Below are positions 1 through 5,745 of a stretch of 5,745 nt of DNA, in pieces. The notes under the pieces were generated by a model, which saw only the letters and a list, made by a program, of their open reading frames with translations, was not told where the DNA came from and searched no databases. This DNA comes from a virus (Duplodnaviria; Heunggongvirae; Uroviricota; Caudoviricetes), in IMG/VR virus record IMGVR_UViG_2623620497_000001, positions 1-5,745 of that record; one strand, 5' to 3'. A program made the translations under genes and the position numbers. Position 1 is the stretch's first letter; every line of letters begins with the position of its first letter.

Positions 1-266
1 ATCCCGTTTTTCCCCACCACCCGTTCTTCCAGCTTGTCAAATACACCAATGACCAGATCGTGGTTGTTATCAAGGTAACGGGCCTGCTCACGTAACGACA
101 CGGCCCCGTACTGGCTTAACTGGTCGGCAGTTCGGTTCTCCCGTCGGGCTTTGTGTGTCCGCGTCGTTTTTACGGCCTCATAAGCCTGAATCACCGCACG
201 GGAACGCAGCCTTGCCGCTTTCCATCCTGGTGAAAAAACGCCAATCACATCATCAAGAATTGCCAT
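1..266 (-). CDS. Phage portal protein (lambda-family), N-terminal 88 codons; gene continues past the window start
   Basis: Minus-strand ATG at 266-264 shares the A of the upstream gene's TGA stop (268-266). The frame stays open to position 1 (MAILDDVIGVFSPGWKAARLRSRAVIQAYEAVKTTRTHKARRENRTADQLSQYGAVSLREQARYLDNNHDLVIGVFDKLEERVVGKNG...). It occupies the slot after the terminase and gpW genes, which is where lambda-like phages place the portal gene. The call rests on gene order; the family was not recognised from sequence. Confidence 0.55.
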   Translation of the reverse strand, partial: MAILDDVIGVFSPGWKAARLRSRAVIQAYEAVKTTRTHKARRENRTADQLSQYGAVSLREQARYLDNNHDLVIGVFDKLEERVVGKNG

Positions 267-484
267 CAGAACCTCGCCAGCCGGTACCCGGGATGCCCCC
301 GTCGTCGTGTAATCAGAGCCGCAAGGCGGCGCTCCCACTCCTGCCGTCCCTGCCGGATCTCAGATAAGTTTTCCATGGTCATCTGCTGACCATTAAAAGT
401 GACGGATTTTCCGTCCAGCACCGCCATTTCAGCTTCCGTATAACGCTGAATCATGGCTTCAATATCATTCTGATTCATAACCAT
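266..484 (-). CDS. gpW-like head-tail joining / head completion protein
   Basis: 72-aa ORF immediately after the large terminase, overlapping its 3' end by 10 nt. Its size and the C-terminal RRRGHPGY motif resemble what I recall of lambda gpW (about 68 aa, C-terminal RRRGPAGF). Confidence 0.65.
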   Translation of the reverse strand: MVMNQNDIEAMIQRYTEAEMAVLDGKSVTFNGQQMTMENLSEIRQGRQEWERRLAALITRRRGHPGYRLARF

Positions 485-2577
485 CCTCCGGAAGTCAGCC
501 AGGGGTTAACATCGTCAGTTACTGTTTTCTTCCGTTTTTGTTTTTTAACAGGCGTGGATACCGGCTCCGGTGAGGGTGACGGTTCGGTACTGTCCGGGAC
601 ACACTCCAGCCAGGTTTCCCGGCTCGCCCACTCCGGTGCATCCGGCCAGCGGATCTTTTCGTATCCATGCAGAATGACCAGCGCCTCGGCATACACCATC
701 AGGTCAAAAGCTTCGTTGGCACCGCGACCCGGCTTACTCCATTTCCCGTCACTGCTCCGCTCTTCATACGTCAGTTCGTCGTAAAACCAGCTCCCCAGCC
801 AGTCAGGGAAATGCACATAGCCTGGACCTGGCGAGTCACGCCATAACGCGTTATTCACCCGGTCTTTCAGGGCATCCGTCTGAAGAAGCCAGAGCGGCAC
901 ATCACCTGCGGCCTGCGCCCGGCGGCCCGTTCGTCCGGTGTTATCAGGGAATGTACGGCTGATCAGTTTTGCGCGCCGGATGCTGTCGCCCTTAAACAGG
1001 TAAATACGTTTACCAAGGCCATCACGACGGCAACGACGCCAGAATTTATAGGCATTATCAGTGACCCCGTCTTCACCGCCGGAATCCACCGCCATTGCCA
1101 TCAGTCGCATTTGTTGAGAAGGATCGGAGGCCAGCGGCCAGCTTTTATGAAAAACATCCGTCAGCAGGACATCCCAGTCTTCCGGATAGCTGGCCGGATC
1201 AATTCGCTGGCTCTCCCCGTCGCTGTCACCGCGCAATGACTGCGTGATGTTGTAACGATCAATAATCCAGCGTTCGCCACGGCTGCCATAGCCCGTTACC
1301 TGAACCACAAAACGGCGATGACGTCCCGCCTGCACATCAACTGTCGCCACCAGGAAATTAACGCCATCCGGCACACTGCGGGAAGGAACTGGCTCTGCCC
1401 GCTGCTCAAGCAGTTCACTTTTTCGTTGCTCCATGCTGGCACGGGGAAGATAAGGTAATCCCCAGTCGGTATTGATAACCGTCTTGAGTGTTTCTTCACT
1501 TCCGGTTGTCTCGTATTCCTGTTCTGCAGTAAGCAGTTTGTAAACGAGTTGCGAGAGTGTCTGGTAAGCAGCTGCCGGACCCTCCATCCAGAATGACGCA
1601 ATACGTGAGCGTCGGGGATCACCATAACGACTGCCATCCGCATTGATGGATTCACCATCCCGCAACCAGACCCCACGTCCGTTCAGCTCACGTTTTTGTT
1701 CAGGCATAATCCGTCCTGAACAGGAAGGACACTGAATATAAGCCGCCTCACTTGCCAGCACGGGATCGGCAATATCACGGAAACCAGCAACCACATCGCC
1801 GCAGGGCTGAAAATACTCACCACAGTGTGGACAGGGCCAGTACCAGCGACGGCGATCGCCACGGTTATAGAGCGACAGTATCCCCGTGGTTGGTGGAGCC
1901 TCATGCGGTGAAGTCCGTCGCCATTTCACATCCTTCACATCCCTGCCGGGGGAACTCTCCACCAGCGTCATACCACTGGACATAAATGTGGTGGTACGTT
2001 TTGAGGCAAGAGAGAAGGCATCCCCCTCGCCATCAATATCTTCCGGAAAACGGTCATAATCCGTCAGCGCCACGCATTTATAATCTGATGAGGACATGAT
2101 ATTGACTGACGGCCAGCCGATTTTCAGGTAGTTGCCAGCAAGGAATGTTCTGTCATAAACGTTGTTGTCATTTTTGTTCGGACTCAGGCGACTGACCACT
2201 TCCGGGCTGACGCGAAACGTTCTGGCAAGTCGTTTTTTGGAGTGTTCGCGGGCTTTTTCCTCCGTCATCTGAATGATCAGCATATCAGCAGGATCGCAAA
2301 TCACATTGTAAATCACCCAGCCGTCAATCAGGCCGATAGTCTTGCCAGTTCGTGCCGGGCCAACAAATATCACTGCGTCGTATTCACGCGAGGCCAGGCA
2401 GTTCATCGGCTCAATAACATACGGTGCCACCAGCGGATCCCACGGGACTGAATTCCCGGCCCCCATGGGCACCCGCATATACTGAGCAACGGCATCAGCA
2501 ACCAGCATTCGTCTCGGTGCGCGAAGGATATAACCTGAATCGGTTCGTGCTGCCTTTGCGGTTTCCTGATTCAGCAT
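475..2577 (-). CDS. Terminase large subunit, lambda GpA family
   Basis: 700-aa ORF with a Walker A-like P-loop VGPARTGKT near the N-terminus and a CPHCGEYF motif resembling CPHCGEEQ of lambda gpA. Its ATG shares a base with the stop of the upstream small-subunit gene (TAATG at 2575-2579). Confidence 0.9.
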   Translation of the reverse strand: MLNQETAKAARTDSGYILRAPRRMLVADAVAQYMRVPMGAGNSVPWDPLVAPYVIEPMNCLASREYDAVIFVGPARTGKTIGLIDGWVIYNVICDPADMLIIQMTEEKAREHSKKRLARTFRVSPEVVSRLSPNKNDNNVYDRTFLAGNYLKIGWPSVNIMSSSDYKCVALTDYDRFPEDIDGEGDAFSLASKRTTTFMSSGMTLVESSPGRDVKDVKWRRTSPHEAPPTTGILSLYNRGDRRRWYWPCPHCGEYFQPCGDVVAGFRDIADPVLASEAAYIQCPSCSGRIMPEQKRELNGRGVWLRDGESINADGSRYGDPRRSRIASFWMEGPAAAYQTLSQLVYKLLTAEQEYETTGSEETLKTVINTDWGLPYLPRASMEQRKSELLEQRAEPVPSRSVPDGVNFLVATVDVQAGRHRRFVVQVTGYGSRGERWIIDRYNITQSLRGDSDGESQRIDPASYPEDWDVLLTDVFHKSWPLASDPSQQMRLMAMAVDSGGEDGVTDNAYKFWRRCRRDGLGKRIYLFKGDSIRRAKLISRTFPDNTGRTGRRAQAAGDVPLWLLQTDALKDRVNNALWRDSPGPGYVHFPDWLGSWFYDELTYEERSSDGKWSKPGRGANEAFDLMVYAEALVILHGYEKIRWPDAPEWASRETWLECVPDSTEPSPSPEPVSTPVKKQKRKKTVTDDVNPWLTSGGWL

Positions 2578-3068
2578 TACTCCTCCTGCTGTAATTCCTC
2601 CTCATCATCCGCACCTGCTTCGGTCACCCGCAGGGCTATCTGATCGCGCAGATCATCAATAATGGACTGAACACGGCTCACAGCGGCAGGCTGCAGGCCG
2701 CAGTCACGTTCCAGAATATCCGGTAATGTCTCCAGCACCTGCACGACCGCTTTTGCCCAGATGGCAAACTCCCGTCTGACATCACTGGCCGGAATGAGTT
2801 GTGCCGTTTCCTGTTCGAACTTAAGACGCTCACGTTCAGACTGATACCAGGCTTTGCGTTCATGTGGATCCATTTCGCCCTCAGCAACCGGCGGTGGTAA
2901 CCCCATAAATTCAGTCAGAATATCGGTCAACCGATATAGCTTGAGTTTGTCATGTCCACCAGCGGGACGAATGTTTTTCAGTCTTGCCACGACAGTCTGG
3001 CGGTGCAGACCAGATAAAGCCGCCAGTTGATTAATATTCAGCACCAAGTTTTTCAACTCATGATCCAT
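2577..3068 (-). CDS. Terminase small subunit, Nu1-like (N-terminal helix-turn-helix)
   Basis: 163-aa ORF directly upstream of and coupled to the large terminase. The N-terminus (LVLNINQLAALSGLHRQTVVARLKNI) has an HTH-like pattern as in lambda Nu1, and the C-terminus is acidic. A GGAGG Shine-Dalgarno lies 4 nt upstream of the ATG at 3068. Confidence 0.8.
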   Translation of the reverse strand: MDHELKNLVLNINQLAALSGLHRQTVVARLKNIRPAGGHDKLKLYRLTDILTEFMGLPPPVAEGEMDPHERKAWYQSERERLKFEQETAQLIPASDVRREFAIWAKAVVQVLETLPDILERDCGLQPAAVSRVQSIIDDLRDQIALRVTEAGADDEEELQQEE

Positions 3069-3123
3069 ATTTCCTCCGGAGAGCTTTAAACATGCATCGT
3101 GCGAACAACTTTAAGAAAACGCG

Positions 3124-3157
3124 TTCGATGTCGAACAAAAACCGCTCAATTCGACAT
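3124..3157. promoter_or_regulatory. Putative cosB-type terminase/IHF binding repeats
   Basis: ATGTCGAA (3128-3135) and TTCGACAT (3150-3157) form a perfect 8-bp inverted repeat with a 14-bp spacer. A third TTCGA half-site is at 3124-3128 and A-tracts follow. It lies between the putative cosN and the small terminase start, where lambda has its R elements and IHF site. Confidence 0.3.
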
Positions 3158-3230
3158 ACAAAAAACAAATAACCATTAATAATCAATAAGATGCAAAGAT
3201 GATGGTGGCCGATAAAAATGCAAAAACTAG

Positions 3231-3262
3231 CCTTTTTCCGCGACGCTCCCGCCCCGTGGTAG
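3231..3262 (-). other. Putative cosN (cohesive-end nicking site)
   Basis: Minus-strand 5'-CACGGGGCGGGAGCGTCGCGGAAAAAGG-3' resembles, from memory, the lambda cos junction ...ACG|GGGCGGCGACCTCGCGGG... . The presumed nick is about 186 nt upstream of the small terminase ATG, close to the roughly 190 nt I recall for lambda Nu1. Confidence 0.35.
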
Positions 3263-3362
3263 GCAACCCCGCCGGGAGGACCCATAAGAAAACACAGGTC
3301 CGACCGCCGTTTTGAATTCTCTTCTAAACGACTCTAGTTTGATTTGAGTATGCAATACGCGT

Positions 3363-3387
3363 AAAAAAGCCCCGCATAGGCGAGGCT
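3363..3387 (-). terminator. Rho-independent terminator downstream of the peptidase gene
   Basis: Minus-strand 5'-AGCCUCGC CUAU GCGGGGCU UUUUUU-3': an 8-bp GC-rich stem with one G-U wobble, a 4-nt loop and a run of six U. It starts 18 nt after the TAA stop at 3408-3406. Confidence 0.6.
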
Positions 3388-3405
3388 GGAATCAGACAGG
3401 GGGGA

Positions 3406-4308
3406 TTAAGACTGGATATTCCAAATCATTGCGTTACCGTTATGATTTTCAATGATTTTTGCCAGTGGTGCTCCACCAAAAGAATGCATGTAGCTGTGAT
3501 GTATAGTCAAAACCAAATCTTGAAGTACTTGATCACTTTCAAGTTCGGTAACATTCAACCCAATTTTCTGCGCCTTATCAAAATGAATATGACGCGAGTG
3601 GGTATAGGTTGTGTGATGGTTGTTTAACTCTGAACAAACATGTGTTGCTTTTGATTCTGCCTCAGGATCATTATCAAACATGCCTGTCATAAGCCAATGC
3701 TTAACAATCTCATTTGCCCATTTGATTGCTTTCTCACACTCGCCGATGATCGTCGGGTTTAGCTTTTGAAGAATGAACTGCCACATCTGAACAGCTGCGG
3801 GATTTTGAAAAATTTCCGTCTGCGCACGATTCCATTCTTCAATGATGGCATGGGTGGAGAAACCGTTGAACTGAGGATCAATTGGGCCAATGTTGGACTG
3901 TTTACCCATGATGATTTCATTGGCACAACATGCAAGCATAGTTCCGCAGGACATTGAAATCATAGGAACAATTGCTCTGATGTTAGTTCCAAACTTCGAC
4001 CTTAAGTAATGCCCGATTGATTCCAAAGCGGCAATATCACCACCTGGAGTATGAAGTATCAAATCCAACCCTTTTGATACATCTAAACCATTGATGGCTG
4101 TCATCAACCCGTTCTTATCATCATCAGTCATCTGAGTAAGATGGCGTACTTCTGCACCACCATGCTGTAACCACCCTGAGTAATATGTGATTACATTTCT
4201 TCCAGTATGATTCGAAAGTTGAGATAAGTATTTACGGCGAACCTCATCCATAGGACTTTTATGGGCGAGAGCCGTTATCTCGCCCAGTACGTCGCTCCAA
4301 TTAGGCAT
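3406..4308 (-). CDS. ClpP/crotonase-fold serine peptidase, SDH (serine dehydrogenase proteinase)-like
   Basis: 300-aa ORF. The segment DLILHTPGGDIAALESIGHYLRSKFGTNIRAIVPMISMSCGTMLACCANEIIMGK aligns by eye with the ClpP core (..[48 protein letters not shown]..), placing a Ser at the nucleophile position. The gene sits in an AT-rich block unlike the flanking phage genes. Its ATG (4308-4306) is 3 nt after the stop of the upstream small ORF and has no Shine-Dalgarno of its own, implying translational coupling. Confidence 0.7.
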   Translation of the reverse strand: MPNWSDVLGEITALAHKSPMDEVRRKYLSQLSNHTGRNVITYYSGWLQHGGAEVRHLTQMTDDDKNGLMTAINGLDVSKGLDLILHTPGGDIAALESIGHYLRSKFGTNIRAIVPMISMSCGTMLACCANEIIMGKQSNIGPIDPQFNGFSTHAIIEEWNRAQTEIFQNPAAVQMWQFILQKLNPTIIGECEKAIKWANEIVKHWLMTGMFDNDPEAESKATHVCSELNNHHTTYTHSRHIHFDKAQKIGLNVTELESDQVLQDLVLTIHHSYMHSFGGAPLAKIIENHNGNAMIWNIQS

Positions 4309-4311
4309 AAA

Positions 4312-4512
4312 TCAGTACGTGTAAAGTTGATGACTTGTAGTTTGGTTTTGCTTCGATTGTGTAGCGGTACCTTGTGAGTACCAAACACCTGTGTTTCCAC
4401 TCGTACTAGTTTGCTGTGCCATTACACGAGAAGCGAAGTTGTTAACAGTTTCACCAGTCAACATTTCTGCCGGTTTGATATTGTAAACATCGTAGAACTC
4501 AGCTGGGGTCAT
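4312..4512 (-). CDS. Small hypothetical protein (66 aa) with polar low-complexity C-terminal tail; first gene of the moron operon
   Basis: ATG at 4512-4510 is preceded by AAGGAG with an 8-nt spacer. The C-terminal half is rich in Q/T/S/N (QQTSTSGNTGVWYSQGTATQSKQNQTTSHQLYTY). It is tightly linked to the peptidase gene. No family was recognised. Confidence 0.55.
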   Translation of the reverse strand: MTPAEFYDVYNIKPAEMLTGETVNNFASRVMAQQTSTSGNTGVWYSQGTATQSKQNQTTSHQLYTY

Positions 4513-4520
4513 AATGATAG

Positions 4521-4600
4521 CTCCTTTTATAGCGCTACATATAGTGCCTGTGCTAAGGGGGACATACTATATGTGCCATTGTTGTCATATTTAAATGTGC
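4521..4600 (-). promoter_or_regulatory. Putative promoter/operator region of the moron operon
   Basis: AT-rich leader immediately upstream of the small ORF. A candidate -10 TATAGT (minus strand) has a weak -35-like TTAAAT 17 nt upstream. A perfect 9-bp inverted repeat ACATATAGT (4537-4545) / ACTATATGT (4566-4574) overlaps the region. Promoter assignment is tentative. Confidence 0.3.
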
Positions 4601-4621
4601 AAAAAGCCTCAAAAGAGGCTT
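4598..4621 (-). terminator. Hairpin with U-tract (weak intrinsic terminator or insulator) upstream of the moron
   Basis: Minus-strand 5'-AAGCCUC UUUU GAGGCUU UUUG-3': a 7-bp stem, 4-nt loop and five U counting the last two stem bases. The plus-strand version is followed by GAAAAAG, so it would act only on the minus strand. Confidence 0.35.
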
Positions 4622-4882
4622 GAAAAAGATGCAAAAATACTATCTATGACGTGACTATAGCTACTTACCCACAGTTTATACAAGCCAAAAATGCTAAATT
4701 CAGATAATCCTATTCGCTGAAAAACTACACAAAAGCTACGTTCATCTTGTCATTAGATAACGTCAGTAACTTTCACTAGATCTAAGCCATTGGTGAAAAA
4801 GCTAATTGCATGATGAAGCACTGTAATGTAGCAGTTGAGGTTGTTAAATGAGAATCACCCTAACAATGTCAACGGACATTAT

Positions 4883-5419
4883 TCATTTTCGTAACTTCTC
4901 AATCTCTCGTATACCCGCCAGGTTATTGTTGCCCTTCTCAATAACAGCCAGCAAAGGTTCAATCCAGAGGACGGCCTGGCAATACGTCATTGAGCTGGCG
5001 GCAGCGGTACTATCATCGGTTGCGTTAGTGTTCCCGGTATCGGGGTGCATTGCGCTGGCACGTAAACGGTACGCGTATTTGAGCAGCCCACCAGCGACAT
5101 CAGCAGGAACAGGCAGATCACAGGTCTTTTCACGTCGGAGAATCTCCCGGTATTCGATGACAGTTTTCTCAGTACCGGCATCGATCAGCGAGTTAAGGCG
5201 GTTGGCGTTCTCTGCTATCTGGTTAAACCGATTGAAGTTGAAAGCCTGTGTAGTTATCACCGTCGCCTGCAGCGCGTTATCATTACGTAATACCCGATTC
5301 TCACTCTGTTCTGTTTCAAGAGCTGAGCGGCTACGAACCAGTAATACGCTAAGCACTGCAATAATGATTACGACAGCCACCAGCAGAACCGCAACAATCG
5401 TAATTTTTCTGGGTTTCAT
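4883..5419 (-). CDS. Rz: Rz-like i-spanin (type II inner-membrane lysis protein)
   Basis: 178-aa ORF whose ATG shares a base with the endolysin TGA stop (TGATG at 5417-5421). It has an N-terminal transmembrane segment (ITIVAVLLVAVVIIIAVLSVLLV) followed by a charged periplasmic domain, and it contains an embedded out-of-frame lipoprotein ORF. Confidence 0.75.
   Translation of the reverse strand: MKPRKITIVAVLLVAVVIIIAVLSVLLVRSRSALETEQSENRVLRNDNALQATVITTQAFNFNRFNQIAENANRLNSLIDAGTEKTVIEYREILRREKTCDLPVPADVAGGLLKYAYRLRASAMHPDTGNTNATDDSTAAASSMTYCQAVLWIEPLLAVIEKGNNNLAGIREIEKLRK
4987..5181 (-). CDS. Rz1: Rz1-like o-spanin lipoprotein embedded in Rz in another frame; true start probably the internal GTG near 5133
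   Basis: The ORF lies entirely inside Rz in a different frame. It has a lipoprotein signal with lipobox (VKRPVICLFLLMSLVG|C) followed by a short proline-rich mature part (CSNTRTVYVPAQCTPIPGTLTQPMIVPLPPAQ), which is the classic Rz1 signature. Confidence 0.6.
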   Translation of the reverse strand: MPVLRKLSSNTGRFSDVKRPVICLFLLMSLVGCSNTRTVYVPAQCTPIPGTLTQPMIVPLPPAQ

Positions 5420-5745
5420 CAGAATACCCCCGGAACTGATACCGGAATGCCTGGGTTAAGCGGCCCGAGCCCATCACCAAGAACCTGAGGTTTTTCTGCC
5501 CACAGGCAAACTTCACGCTCAATCTCACGACGAGTCATCAGGCCTTTCCATTGCTTACCGCCAGCGTATATCCAGCGACGTAGCTGGTCACATGCGCCTT
5601 TGATATCGCCCTGGTTTATTTTGCGAAGAAGCGTCGATGTTCTGAAATTGCCAGCACCCACGTTGTAGACGAACGAGTAAAGAGCGCCGCGCGTTGTTTC
5701 CGGTATATCGACTTTGATGTACGGGTTAATTTGTCTGGCAACCGT
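5419..5745 (-). CDS. Phage endolysin (lysozyme, GH24 T4/P22-type), C-terminal part; gene continues past the window end
   Basis: The minus-strand frame is open from the window edge: [58 protein letters not shown]..., which matches what I recall of enterobacterial prophage lysozymes. It is immediately followed by Rz/Rz1. The Met at 5661 in the ORF track is an internal GTG, not the start. Confidence 0.8.

Follow-up and report, generated by a model that had tools for sequence, protein, structure and literature searches.

The stretch of DNA analyzed here (the window) spans 5,745 nucleotides (nt) of a Caudoviricetes genome (IMG/VR virus record IMGVR_UViG_2623620497_000001, positions 1 to 5,745) and corresponds to the late region of an Escherichia coli lambdoid prophage, in which all genes lie on the minus strand; unless stated otherwise, every feature of the window described below is on that strand. 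Our subject is a pair of its genes: one coding for a small protein of 66 amino acids (aa), hereinafter the partner (4512..4312; 198 nt of coding sequence, 4512-4315, plus a TGA stop, 4314-4312), and, directly downstream, one coding for a 300-aa SDH-type serine peptidase with a ClpP fold (3406..4308). The small open reading frame (ORF) had been singled out in a preliminary description that named no strand; it is present as described there, on the minus strand, and the evidence assembled below leaves us highly confident that it is a real and dedicated partner of the SDH-type peptidase.

The partner (MTPAEFYDVYNIKPAEMLTGETVNNFASRVMAQQTSTSGNTGVWYSQGTATQSKQNQTTSHQLYTY) is preceded by a Shine-Dalgarno (SD) element, AGGAG (4521..4525), which is placed 8 nt before the ATG, is invariant in the six cassettes compared and forms a best anti-SD duplex of -7.9 kcal/mol. 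An AlphaFold2 model built with 18 homologs, the charge distribution and the pattern of conservation together delineate two parts in the protein. Codons 1-36 (4405..4512) specify an acidic N-terminal part (isoelectric point, pI, of 4.4 for residues 1-32) with two predicted helices (residues 3-9 and 23-36; predicted local distance difference test scores, pLDDT, of 78-86). Codons 37-66 (4315..4404) specify a polar tail that is predicted to be disordered, with a pLDDT of 55-62 and no secondary structure, in agreement with the earlier view of the C-terminal half as flexible rather than folded. The Q/T/S/N-richness ascribed to this half likewise stands: 22 of the 34 residues in the segment 33-66 are of these types (65%; 74% if G is included), with a single charged residue, a composition unmatched by the five neighboring proteins, which reach at most 15 such residues per 34-residue window (0/1,248 windows reach 22). 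Within the tail lie two short elements, namely G-V-W-Y-S-Q-G-T (codons 42-49; 4366..4389), which holds the sequence V-x-Y-S conserved across phyla, and the C-terminal L-Y-T-Y-COOH (codons 63-66; 4315..4326), with the motif [LM]-Y-[ST]-Y, found only in the enterobacterial clade. The terminal HQLYTY mentioned in the preliminary description is real, but it is the mid-tail V-x-Y-S, and not this end, that crosses phylum boundaries. Searches of the partner against Pfam, NCBIfam and PADLOC returned no match, and its best matches to known domains in the Protein Data Bank (PDB), a kainate receptor and the helix-hairpin-helix region of ERCC1, were rejected as not significant (E 0.09-0.47). Neither the partner nor the peptidase has a signal peptide or transmembrane segment in its sequence.

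Comparison with the cassettes of other prophages yields a ratio of nonsynonymous to synonymous substitution rates (dN/dS) of 0.05-0.15 overall for the partner gene (0.05-0.09 where dS is 1.2-1.4, and ~0.13 where dS is ~3.2), with third codon positions holding 25-29 of the 35-45 nucleotide differences between partner genes. The protein matches the profile phrog_25714 over its entire length (E 3.9e-44; residues 1-66 on profile positions 1-66), and the overlapping ORFs at 4275-4400 (minus) and 4411-4623 (plus), both in other frames, are without support of this kind. Comparative evidence of this kind shows the 66-aa ORF to be a translated gene under purifying selection. The possibility of a chance ORF was considered and is ruled out by the dN/dS values, by the motifs shared across phyla and by the gene order in two loci (L093 and L095) where the partner is encoded downstream of the peptidase; this same downstream location argues that the partner acts in trans and not as a leader. 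In RefSeq the gene is left unannotated in 42/42 records of the window allele, and its 80%-identical allele and the allele from strain Nissle 1917 are labeled ‘hypothetical protein’.

The link between the two genes is apparent from the 105 peptidase loci that we retrieved, which comprise 8,779 ORFs and of which 98 include upstream sequence. An enterobacterial-type partner occurs in 62 loci, 2-14 nt upstream of the peptidase, and a second type of partner (consensus: ...F..L.IP....Y..A..FA..FKKCSIL....V.YS...) is found in a further 21, lying 11-72 nt upstream in 19 and 2-6 nt downstream, on the 3' side of the peptidase, in the two IMG/VR contigs noted above (L093, 4931-5095; L095, 2482-2652). In the remaining 15 loci with upstream sequence other small same-strand ORFs adjoin the peptidase. 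A scan of IMG/VR by the small protein produced 19 contigs, the same 19 as were found by the peptidase, and homologs of the small protein in Phytobacter and in metagenomes precede a peptidase. The small ORF is present in 49 of 5,426 complete E. coli genomes (42 at 100% and 7 at ~80% identity), where the peptidase matches divide into the same pair of allele classes (42 + 7), and wherever record coordinates were compared the two genes proved to be neighbors. Over 1.6 kb around the pair, 42 of the 5,426 genomes agree with the window at 99% identity or more, always on the chromosome; the segment was not found at this identity in 50,697 deposited phage genomes. Homologs that frequently stand apart from a peptidase, which would speak against the dedicated partner proposed earlier, were not seen: 83/83 profile-recognized partner ORFs are peptidase-adjacent, and 19/19 IMG/VR contigs found by the small protein also carry the peptidase.

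Gene callers often miss the partner. In Methylomonas the caller picked a minus-strand ORF instead, and in the Gordonia phage BeeGee (L100, MW601219) an unannotated 58-aa ORF (~2825-3001; MANPASHLEQ...HVRYSTSATR) overlaps the start of gp31, an SDH peptidase homolog, as TAATG; since this ORF contains V-x-Y-S, the partner family extends to actinobacteriophages. E. coli Nissle 1917 (L101, NZ_CP058217, 3782-4900) has a version of the cassette that is ~70% identical in DNA, sits between the antiterminator Q and a DNA methyltransferase, and codes for a 68-aa partner (WP_001704134.1) and a peptidase that RefSeq begins 30 nt past its conserved MPNW start, which is at 4001. One metagenome scaffold (L107, from two samples) carries a 19-bp deletion, at approximately 4404-4422 in window terms, which throws the partner out of frame beyond residue 30; the peptidase gene is undamaged over its first 193 codons, and the contig stops before the end of the peptidase. 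Natural partner knock-outs (P0006 and P0010) were considered as a test of an antitoxin role and set aside, given the short contigs, a homopolymer indel that is probably a sequencing error and an ambiguous 19-bp deletion.

The peptidase is recognized by the Pfam family SDH_protease (PF01972; 81.2 bits vs a cut-off of 31.3, E 8.4e-23) and matches phrog_11747 over its full length (E 2.1e-138). Its score of 95.9 against the NCBIfam equivalog NF047768 lies under the cut-off of 250 for that model, and hence it belongs to a divergent subfamily. No solved structure is detectable for it by sequence; its AlphaFold2 model (pLDDT 90.7) shows the structural similarity to solved ClpP, SppA or NfeD that identifies the ClpP/crotonase fold. 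Across 103 sequences H86-TPGG, S120, D144, H237, H240 and H271 do not vary, and the candidate catalytic residues (S120, D144 and H237/H240/H271) occur in the order Ser-Asp-His. On account of the invariance of Ser120, HTPGG and the other positions across this set, the peptidase is probably active. Its N-terminus, MPNWxxVLxE, is almost invariant, yet has a pLDDT of 45-56, making it a candidate docking or gating segment. Relatives of the peptidase fill more than 8,000 database clusters at E 1e-5, and 228 IMG/VR contigs carry it, with sequence identities of 45-57% between Proteobacteria and Firmicutes/Bacteroidota and 37% to an actinobacteriophage. Several distant homologs (P0075, P0078, P0106, P0127 and gp31 of L100) have a Q/P-rich C-terminal extension of 20-45 residues, with a composition like that of the partner tail; at least one of these (P0075, from L105) keeps a separate partner too. 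Natural fusions of partner and peptidase were not found among the longer homologs, in which the extra length is due either to a Q/P-rich extension of this kind at the C-terminus or to a start that was called wrongly.

The partner, for its part, evolves much more rapidly. The dN/dS of the peptidase is 0.01-0.03, and the dN of the partner is 3-4 times that of the peptidase, an asymmetry of rates such as is typically seen between regulators and their enzymes or between antitoxins and toxins. When the small protein is used as query, a sequence search recovers ~10 clusters of homologs at 76-98% identity, and a profile search adds ~11 further representatives among 1.84 billion proteins, which at face value would make this a narrow, enterobacterial family. 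Partners of different clades are barely alignable, while the peptidases are 45-57% identical: the enterobacterial-type profile (hmmsearch) reaches no other partner type at E 1e-3, and below this threshold other-type partners hold ranks 1, 2, 4, 6, 7, 9 and 13 against ~7,900 unrelated ORFs. A profile-profile comparison (hhalign) of 32 enterobacterial with 16 second-type sequences gave a probability of 68% (E 4.9e-5, 48 columns) and paired helix 1, the G-I-x-P turn, the [FY]-A of helix 2 and V-x-Y-S between the types; an earlier hhalign comparison with small alignments was not significant. We regard a common ancestry of the partner types as probable, not proven. In 32 distinct enterobacterial partners M1, Y7, I12, V43, Y45, Y64 and Y66 are invariant, and E21, R29, G42 and S46 are at least 90% conserved, with the tyrosine of V-x-Y (Y45) being the only residue invariant across both types. 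V-x-Y-S also occurs in the partners from Pseudomonas, Firmicutes, Methylomonas and the Gordonia phage, and the C-terminal Y-x-Y is absent from the non-enterobacterial types, which end in K-K/K-R and others. The segment GNTGVWYSQGTA (4366-4395, minus strand) is similar to the unit of a repeat, GDTGLWISNGTATGS, that occurs six times in P0133, an unrelated protein of 330 aa brought up by the profile search; this likeness suggests that the motif forms a beta-hairpin.

The junction between the two genes (4306..4314) reads TAC TGA ttt ATG: the partner stop at 4314-4312 is followed by a 3-nt spacer and, in the same frame, by the SD-less peptidase ATG at 4308. The 20 nt before this ATG bind the anti-SD at +0.6 kcal/mol, which bears out the earlier observation of a stop 3 nt before a start with no SD of its own. 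No SD precedes the peptidase in 26/28 distinct enterobacterial junctions, where the gap is 2-14 nt, and in the predicted RNA fold part of the peptidase start region is base-paired (z = -2.6). Given the SD-less start, the short gap and the paired start region, synthesis of the peptidase should depend on ribosomes that have just come off the partner. The proposal of translational coupling in a fixed ratio thus fares unevenly: the SD-less juxtaposition is kept in the enterobacterial junctions, whereas a fixed ratio is not what comparison with Pseudomonas-type cassettes and with the reversed gene order suggests. The former have a perfect intrinsic terminator, AGCCCGG-tattc-CCGGGCT-TTTTTT, between the partner and peptidase genes (L014, 4963-4991; also L015-17 and L071-83), which would make expression of the peptidase depend on read-through. 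In several second-type or swapped-order cassettes (e.g., L086, L093 and L105), including both cassettes with the reversed gene order, the peptidase has an SD of its own, with the partner kept. The common theme that these arrangements suggest is an abundance of partner that equals or exceeds that of the peptidase, with no peptidase made in its absence, and not a 1:1 ratio.

The pair is flanked by a leader and a terminator. Upstream is the leader (4513..4730) with a promoter-like site and several blocks, comprising two TATAGT -10-like boxes (4659-4654 and 4571-4566), a -35-like TTTAAA (4595-4590), a hairpin with a T-run (4621-4601) and an inverted repeat, CACATATAGT / ACTATATGT (4575-4566 / 4545-4537), the first arm of which overlaps the second -10-like box. 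The TATAGT boxes, the hairpin with its T-run and the inverted repeat are invariant among six cassettes that are only ~80% identical overall. The inverted repeat might serve as an operator, be it in autoregulation or in control by the phage; no Rfam family accounts for the leader, the best E values of 0.35-0.5 lying far under the gathering scores. Downstream, 19 nt past the peptidase stop, an intrinsic terminator (AGCCTCGC-CTAT-GCGGGGCT followed by TTTTT; 3368..3387) marks the 3' end of the cassette. Similarity to the cassettes of prophages with different lysis and packaging genes spans ~3320-3406 to ~4700-4730, thus taking in the ~200-nt leader and the terminator, and the G+C content (GC) is 0.36-0.45 between ~3100 and 4900 vs 0.50-0.58 in the flanks.

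This unit recurs in diverse surroundings. It is located between the Rz and terminase genes in the window and in L003 and L004/5; between the antiterminator Q and a holin or methylase in L006-11, L002 and Nissle 1917; beside the integrase in Pseudomonas (L014-16); beside HicAB in Porphyromonas phages; after tail genes in the Gordonia phage BeeGee and a Dehalobacter prophage; and, in L103, next to YafQ-like and Fic genes in DNA that is not part of a prophage. The peptidase locus was also retrieved from Mangrovibacter. Comparison of these loci shows that leader, partner, peptidase and terminator together constitute a low-GC cargo cassette that moves between unrelated temperate phages and sometimes stands alone in chromosomes. 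Such insertion sites are usual for accessory genes expressed in lysogens, the ‘morons’ of the HK97/HK022 literature. In L004/L005 (4882-5515) the cassette comes directly after a gene for an Acb2/Tad1-hairpin domain, of the anti-CBASS/anti-Thoeris sponge family, and defense-related and counter-defense cargo therefore share this position.

In the window itself the cassette is flanked on the upstream side by the C-terminal part of an endolysin (5745-5419; Phage_lysozyme) and an Rz-like spanin gene (5419-4883), in which a Rz1/LysC-like lipoprotein ORF is embedded in another frame (5181-4987; weak LysC match, E 0.03); RefSeq marks the outer Rz-like gene alone, as ‘hypothetical protein’. On the downstream side are the genes for the DUF1441 small terminase subunit (3068-2577) and the gpA-type large terminase subunit (2577-475). 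The ~300 nt that separate the small terminase gene from the terminator of the cassette (3069-3367) are non-coding and of lower GC, with a second terminator-like hairpin at 3137-3122, and presumably house the cos site. In an otherwise identical prophage of E. coli UK_Dog_Liverpool (L001, 4883-7278; NZ_CP031653) the large terminase gene, intact in the window, is truncated by an element encoding a tyrosine integrase, an HTH regulator, BRO-N, an Icd-like protein, DUF4222 and a primase, which looks like a P4-type satellite or island.

How might the two proteins work together? The reading we favor, to which we assign a probability of roughly 40%, is that the partner is a pseudosubstrate-like inhibitory lid on the peptidase. 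It is prompted by the layouts that favor an excess of partner, the asymmetry in evolutionary rates, the company kept by the cassette and the precedent of SppA. In outline, the acidic two-helix N-terminal part would anchor the partner, and its disordered polar tail would carry a linear motif, V-x-Y-S, probably in the form of a beta-strand, supplemented in Enterobacterales by the C-terminal Y-x-Y. The tail might then occupy the substrate groove or active site of the peptidase as a pseudosubstrate or slow substrate, keeping the enzyme shut, and in this sense the partner would be an antitoxin-like lid. The gene layout would see to it that production of the peptidase is always accompanied by an equal or greater amount of partner. 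Upon loss or displacement of the partner, for which turnover of this disordered protein, shut-off of host expression or a phage protein are possible triggers, the peptidase would be freed to cut its real targets, with the outcome being an exclusion or abortive-infection phenotype of the lysogen, or addiction to the cassette.

Several observations weigh against such a lid. No DNA-binding domain is detectable in the partner, and none of six partner variants has a Pfam or NCBIfam domain; the want of a DNA-binding domain together with the acidic N-terminal part (pI 4.4) is unlike the canonical type II antitoxins. No PADLOC-DB v2 family matches either the partner or the peptidase at E up to 1. Among operons, the nearest precedent within the fold is that of NfeD 1510-N and stomatin, where stomatin is the substrate of the enzyme and not its inhibitor. 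Lastly, the frameshifting deletion in L107 argues against a strictly essential partner; however, the same frameshift destroys the stop/start coupling too, such that the peptidase may perhaps not be made either.

The NfeD precedent leads to the converse possibility, that the peptidase exists to cut the partner, for instance at or near V-x-Y-S, freeing or destroying an active fragment (...QLYTY), either in the manner of NfeD 1510-N cutting the stomatin encoded next to it or as in the processing of a signaling-peptide precursor. The obligate adjacency of the genes fits this proposal, as does the disordered tail, whose conserved short motif looks like a cleavage site, and SppA does bind and self-process a C-terminal peptide (4kwb). 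Nevertheless, the partner is barely conserved between clades outside V-x-Y-S, with Y-x-Y absent beyond the enterobacterial type, and none of its fragments resembles a conserved effector, while the peptidase remains 45-57% identical across phyla. Further, neither protein has a signal peptide or transmembrane segment and no receptor-like gene accompanies the pair, and keeping a 300-aa enzyme just for a variable 66-aa peptide would be uneconomical; we therefore hold the substrate role to be rather unlikely. Somewhat less likely still, in our estimate, is that the partner is a positive cofactor, namely an adaptor, assembly factor or sensor subunit required for oligomerization, gate opening or target recognition, in which case its fast evolution would mirror an arms race with phage or host targets. 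ClpP-fold enzymes commonly need partners for gating, and obligate co-inheritance in either gene order, a fast-evolving partner next to a nearly frozen enzyme, and an N-terminal MPNWxxVLxE that behaves as expected of a segment ordering only upon binding are all in keeping with a cofactor. What tells against it are the layouts favoring an excess of partner, i.e., the internal terminator and reinitiation without an SD, which are more typical of neutralizers than of stoichiometric subunits. Finally, translation of the small ORF could by itself deliver ribosomes to the peptidase start, with the peptide being functionless, and the SD-less start 3 nt past the stop and its partial pairing in the predicted RNA fold (z = -2.6) are compatible with such a cis-acting leader. 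Yet the amino acid sequence is under strong purifying selection, residues and motifs are conserved across phyla, two loci have the partner downstream of the peptidase, and the partner is retained where the peptidase has its own SD (e.g., L086, L093 and L105). The dN/dS values, the cross-phylum motifs and the gene order in L093/L095 effectively exclude this explanation, which we consider exceedingly improbable.

As to novelty, our searches of the published literature (PF01972, DUF114, SDH protease, and S49/ClpP-like prophage defense) found nothing on the family, the pairing or the partner, and a paper on a defense screen has no matching terms either. Both genes had been seen in phage genomes, their products being catalogued only as PHROGs of ‘unknown function’. 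The pair is carried by temperate phages of at least four phyla, Proteobacteria, Firmicutes, Bacteroidota and Actinobacteria, and almost every member of the peptidase family has a small partner, recognition of which makes a defined system of two genes out of a lone ‘hypothetical protease’. We entertain, as a tentative and on balance improbable extension of the inhibitory lid, that this is a widespread, hitherto unrecognized two-component protease system representing a new toxin-antitoxin (TA) or abortive-infection class, in which a protease is held shut by a pseudosubstrate tail. If the pair is indeed a protease-based TA or exclusion module, it would add a new type of effector to the immunity encoded by prophages; should the partner turn out to be a substrate, the pair would define a new phage-carried pathway of intracellular peptide processing. 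In either case the 66-aa gene merits adding to the annotation, and V-x-Y-S and the C-terminal Y-x-Y are ready targets for mutagenesis.

Set beside known systems, the pair recalls type II TA modules, with which it shares a two-gene operon of adjacent, co-oriented genes (here with a 3-nt gap and a shared leader and terminator), in which a small upstream gene is followed by a larger downstream one for an enzyme across tight or overlapping junctions. As in these modules, the small protein combines a folded N-terminal with a disordered C-terminal part and evolves faster than the enzyme, and the cassette is mobile and found beside HicAB, YafQ and Fic genes. It departs from them in that no DNA-binding antitoxin domain (helix-turn-helix, ribbon-helix-helix, AbrB, Phd/YefM and similar) is detectable in the partner, and in the reversal of gene order in some members; moreover, no ClpP-fold peptidase is, to our knowledge, an established toxin. 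A phage-encoded ClpP fold is also seen in the ClpP-related/S49 prohead proteases, to which the peptidase shows weak matches (phrog_53, E 6e-5; NF045542, E 2.8e-4). Unlike these, its gene lies outside the head module, in varied cargo positions next to differing packaging genes, and the cassette has its own leader and terminator and occurs outside prophages too. The two PHROG families that cover the pair, phrog_25714 and phrog_11747, are both labeled ‘unknown function’, and the pairing, the wider partner family and the motifs are unrecorded there. The partner also does not resemble a precursor of a secreted signaling peptide (arbitrium AimP-like) or of a ribosomally synthesized and post-translationally modified peptide: its N-terminus is acidic and helical and not a signal peptide, no receptor or modification gene accompanies the pair, and its C-terminus is conserved within the clade and not variable.

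Further analogies come from within the fold itself. In Pyrococcus horikoshii the gene for the ClpP-fold serine protease NfeD (1510-N; PDB 2deo) is placed beside that for stomatin, the protein on which it acts, and our peptidase has a weak match to NfeD1b_N (25 bits, under the gathering score of 40). The operons nonetheless differ, for the partner is a soluble protein of 66 aa without SPFH/Band_7, neither protein of our pair has a membrane segment, and the context is that of prophage cargo and not of a membrane-scaffold operon. SppA, with which the peptidase has marginal sequence similarity (TIGR00706, E 0.007), is a membrane-anchored Ser/Lys enzyme whose tail is in cis. In its crystal structure (PDB 4kwb), the C-terminal peptide of the protein itself sits in the active sites, a precedent for a flexible peptide tail that lies in the substrate groove as a regulatory element; in the pair described here, such a tail would be supplied in trans.

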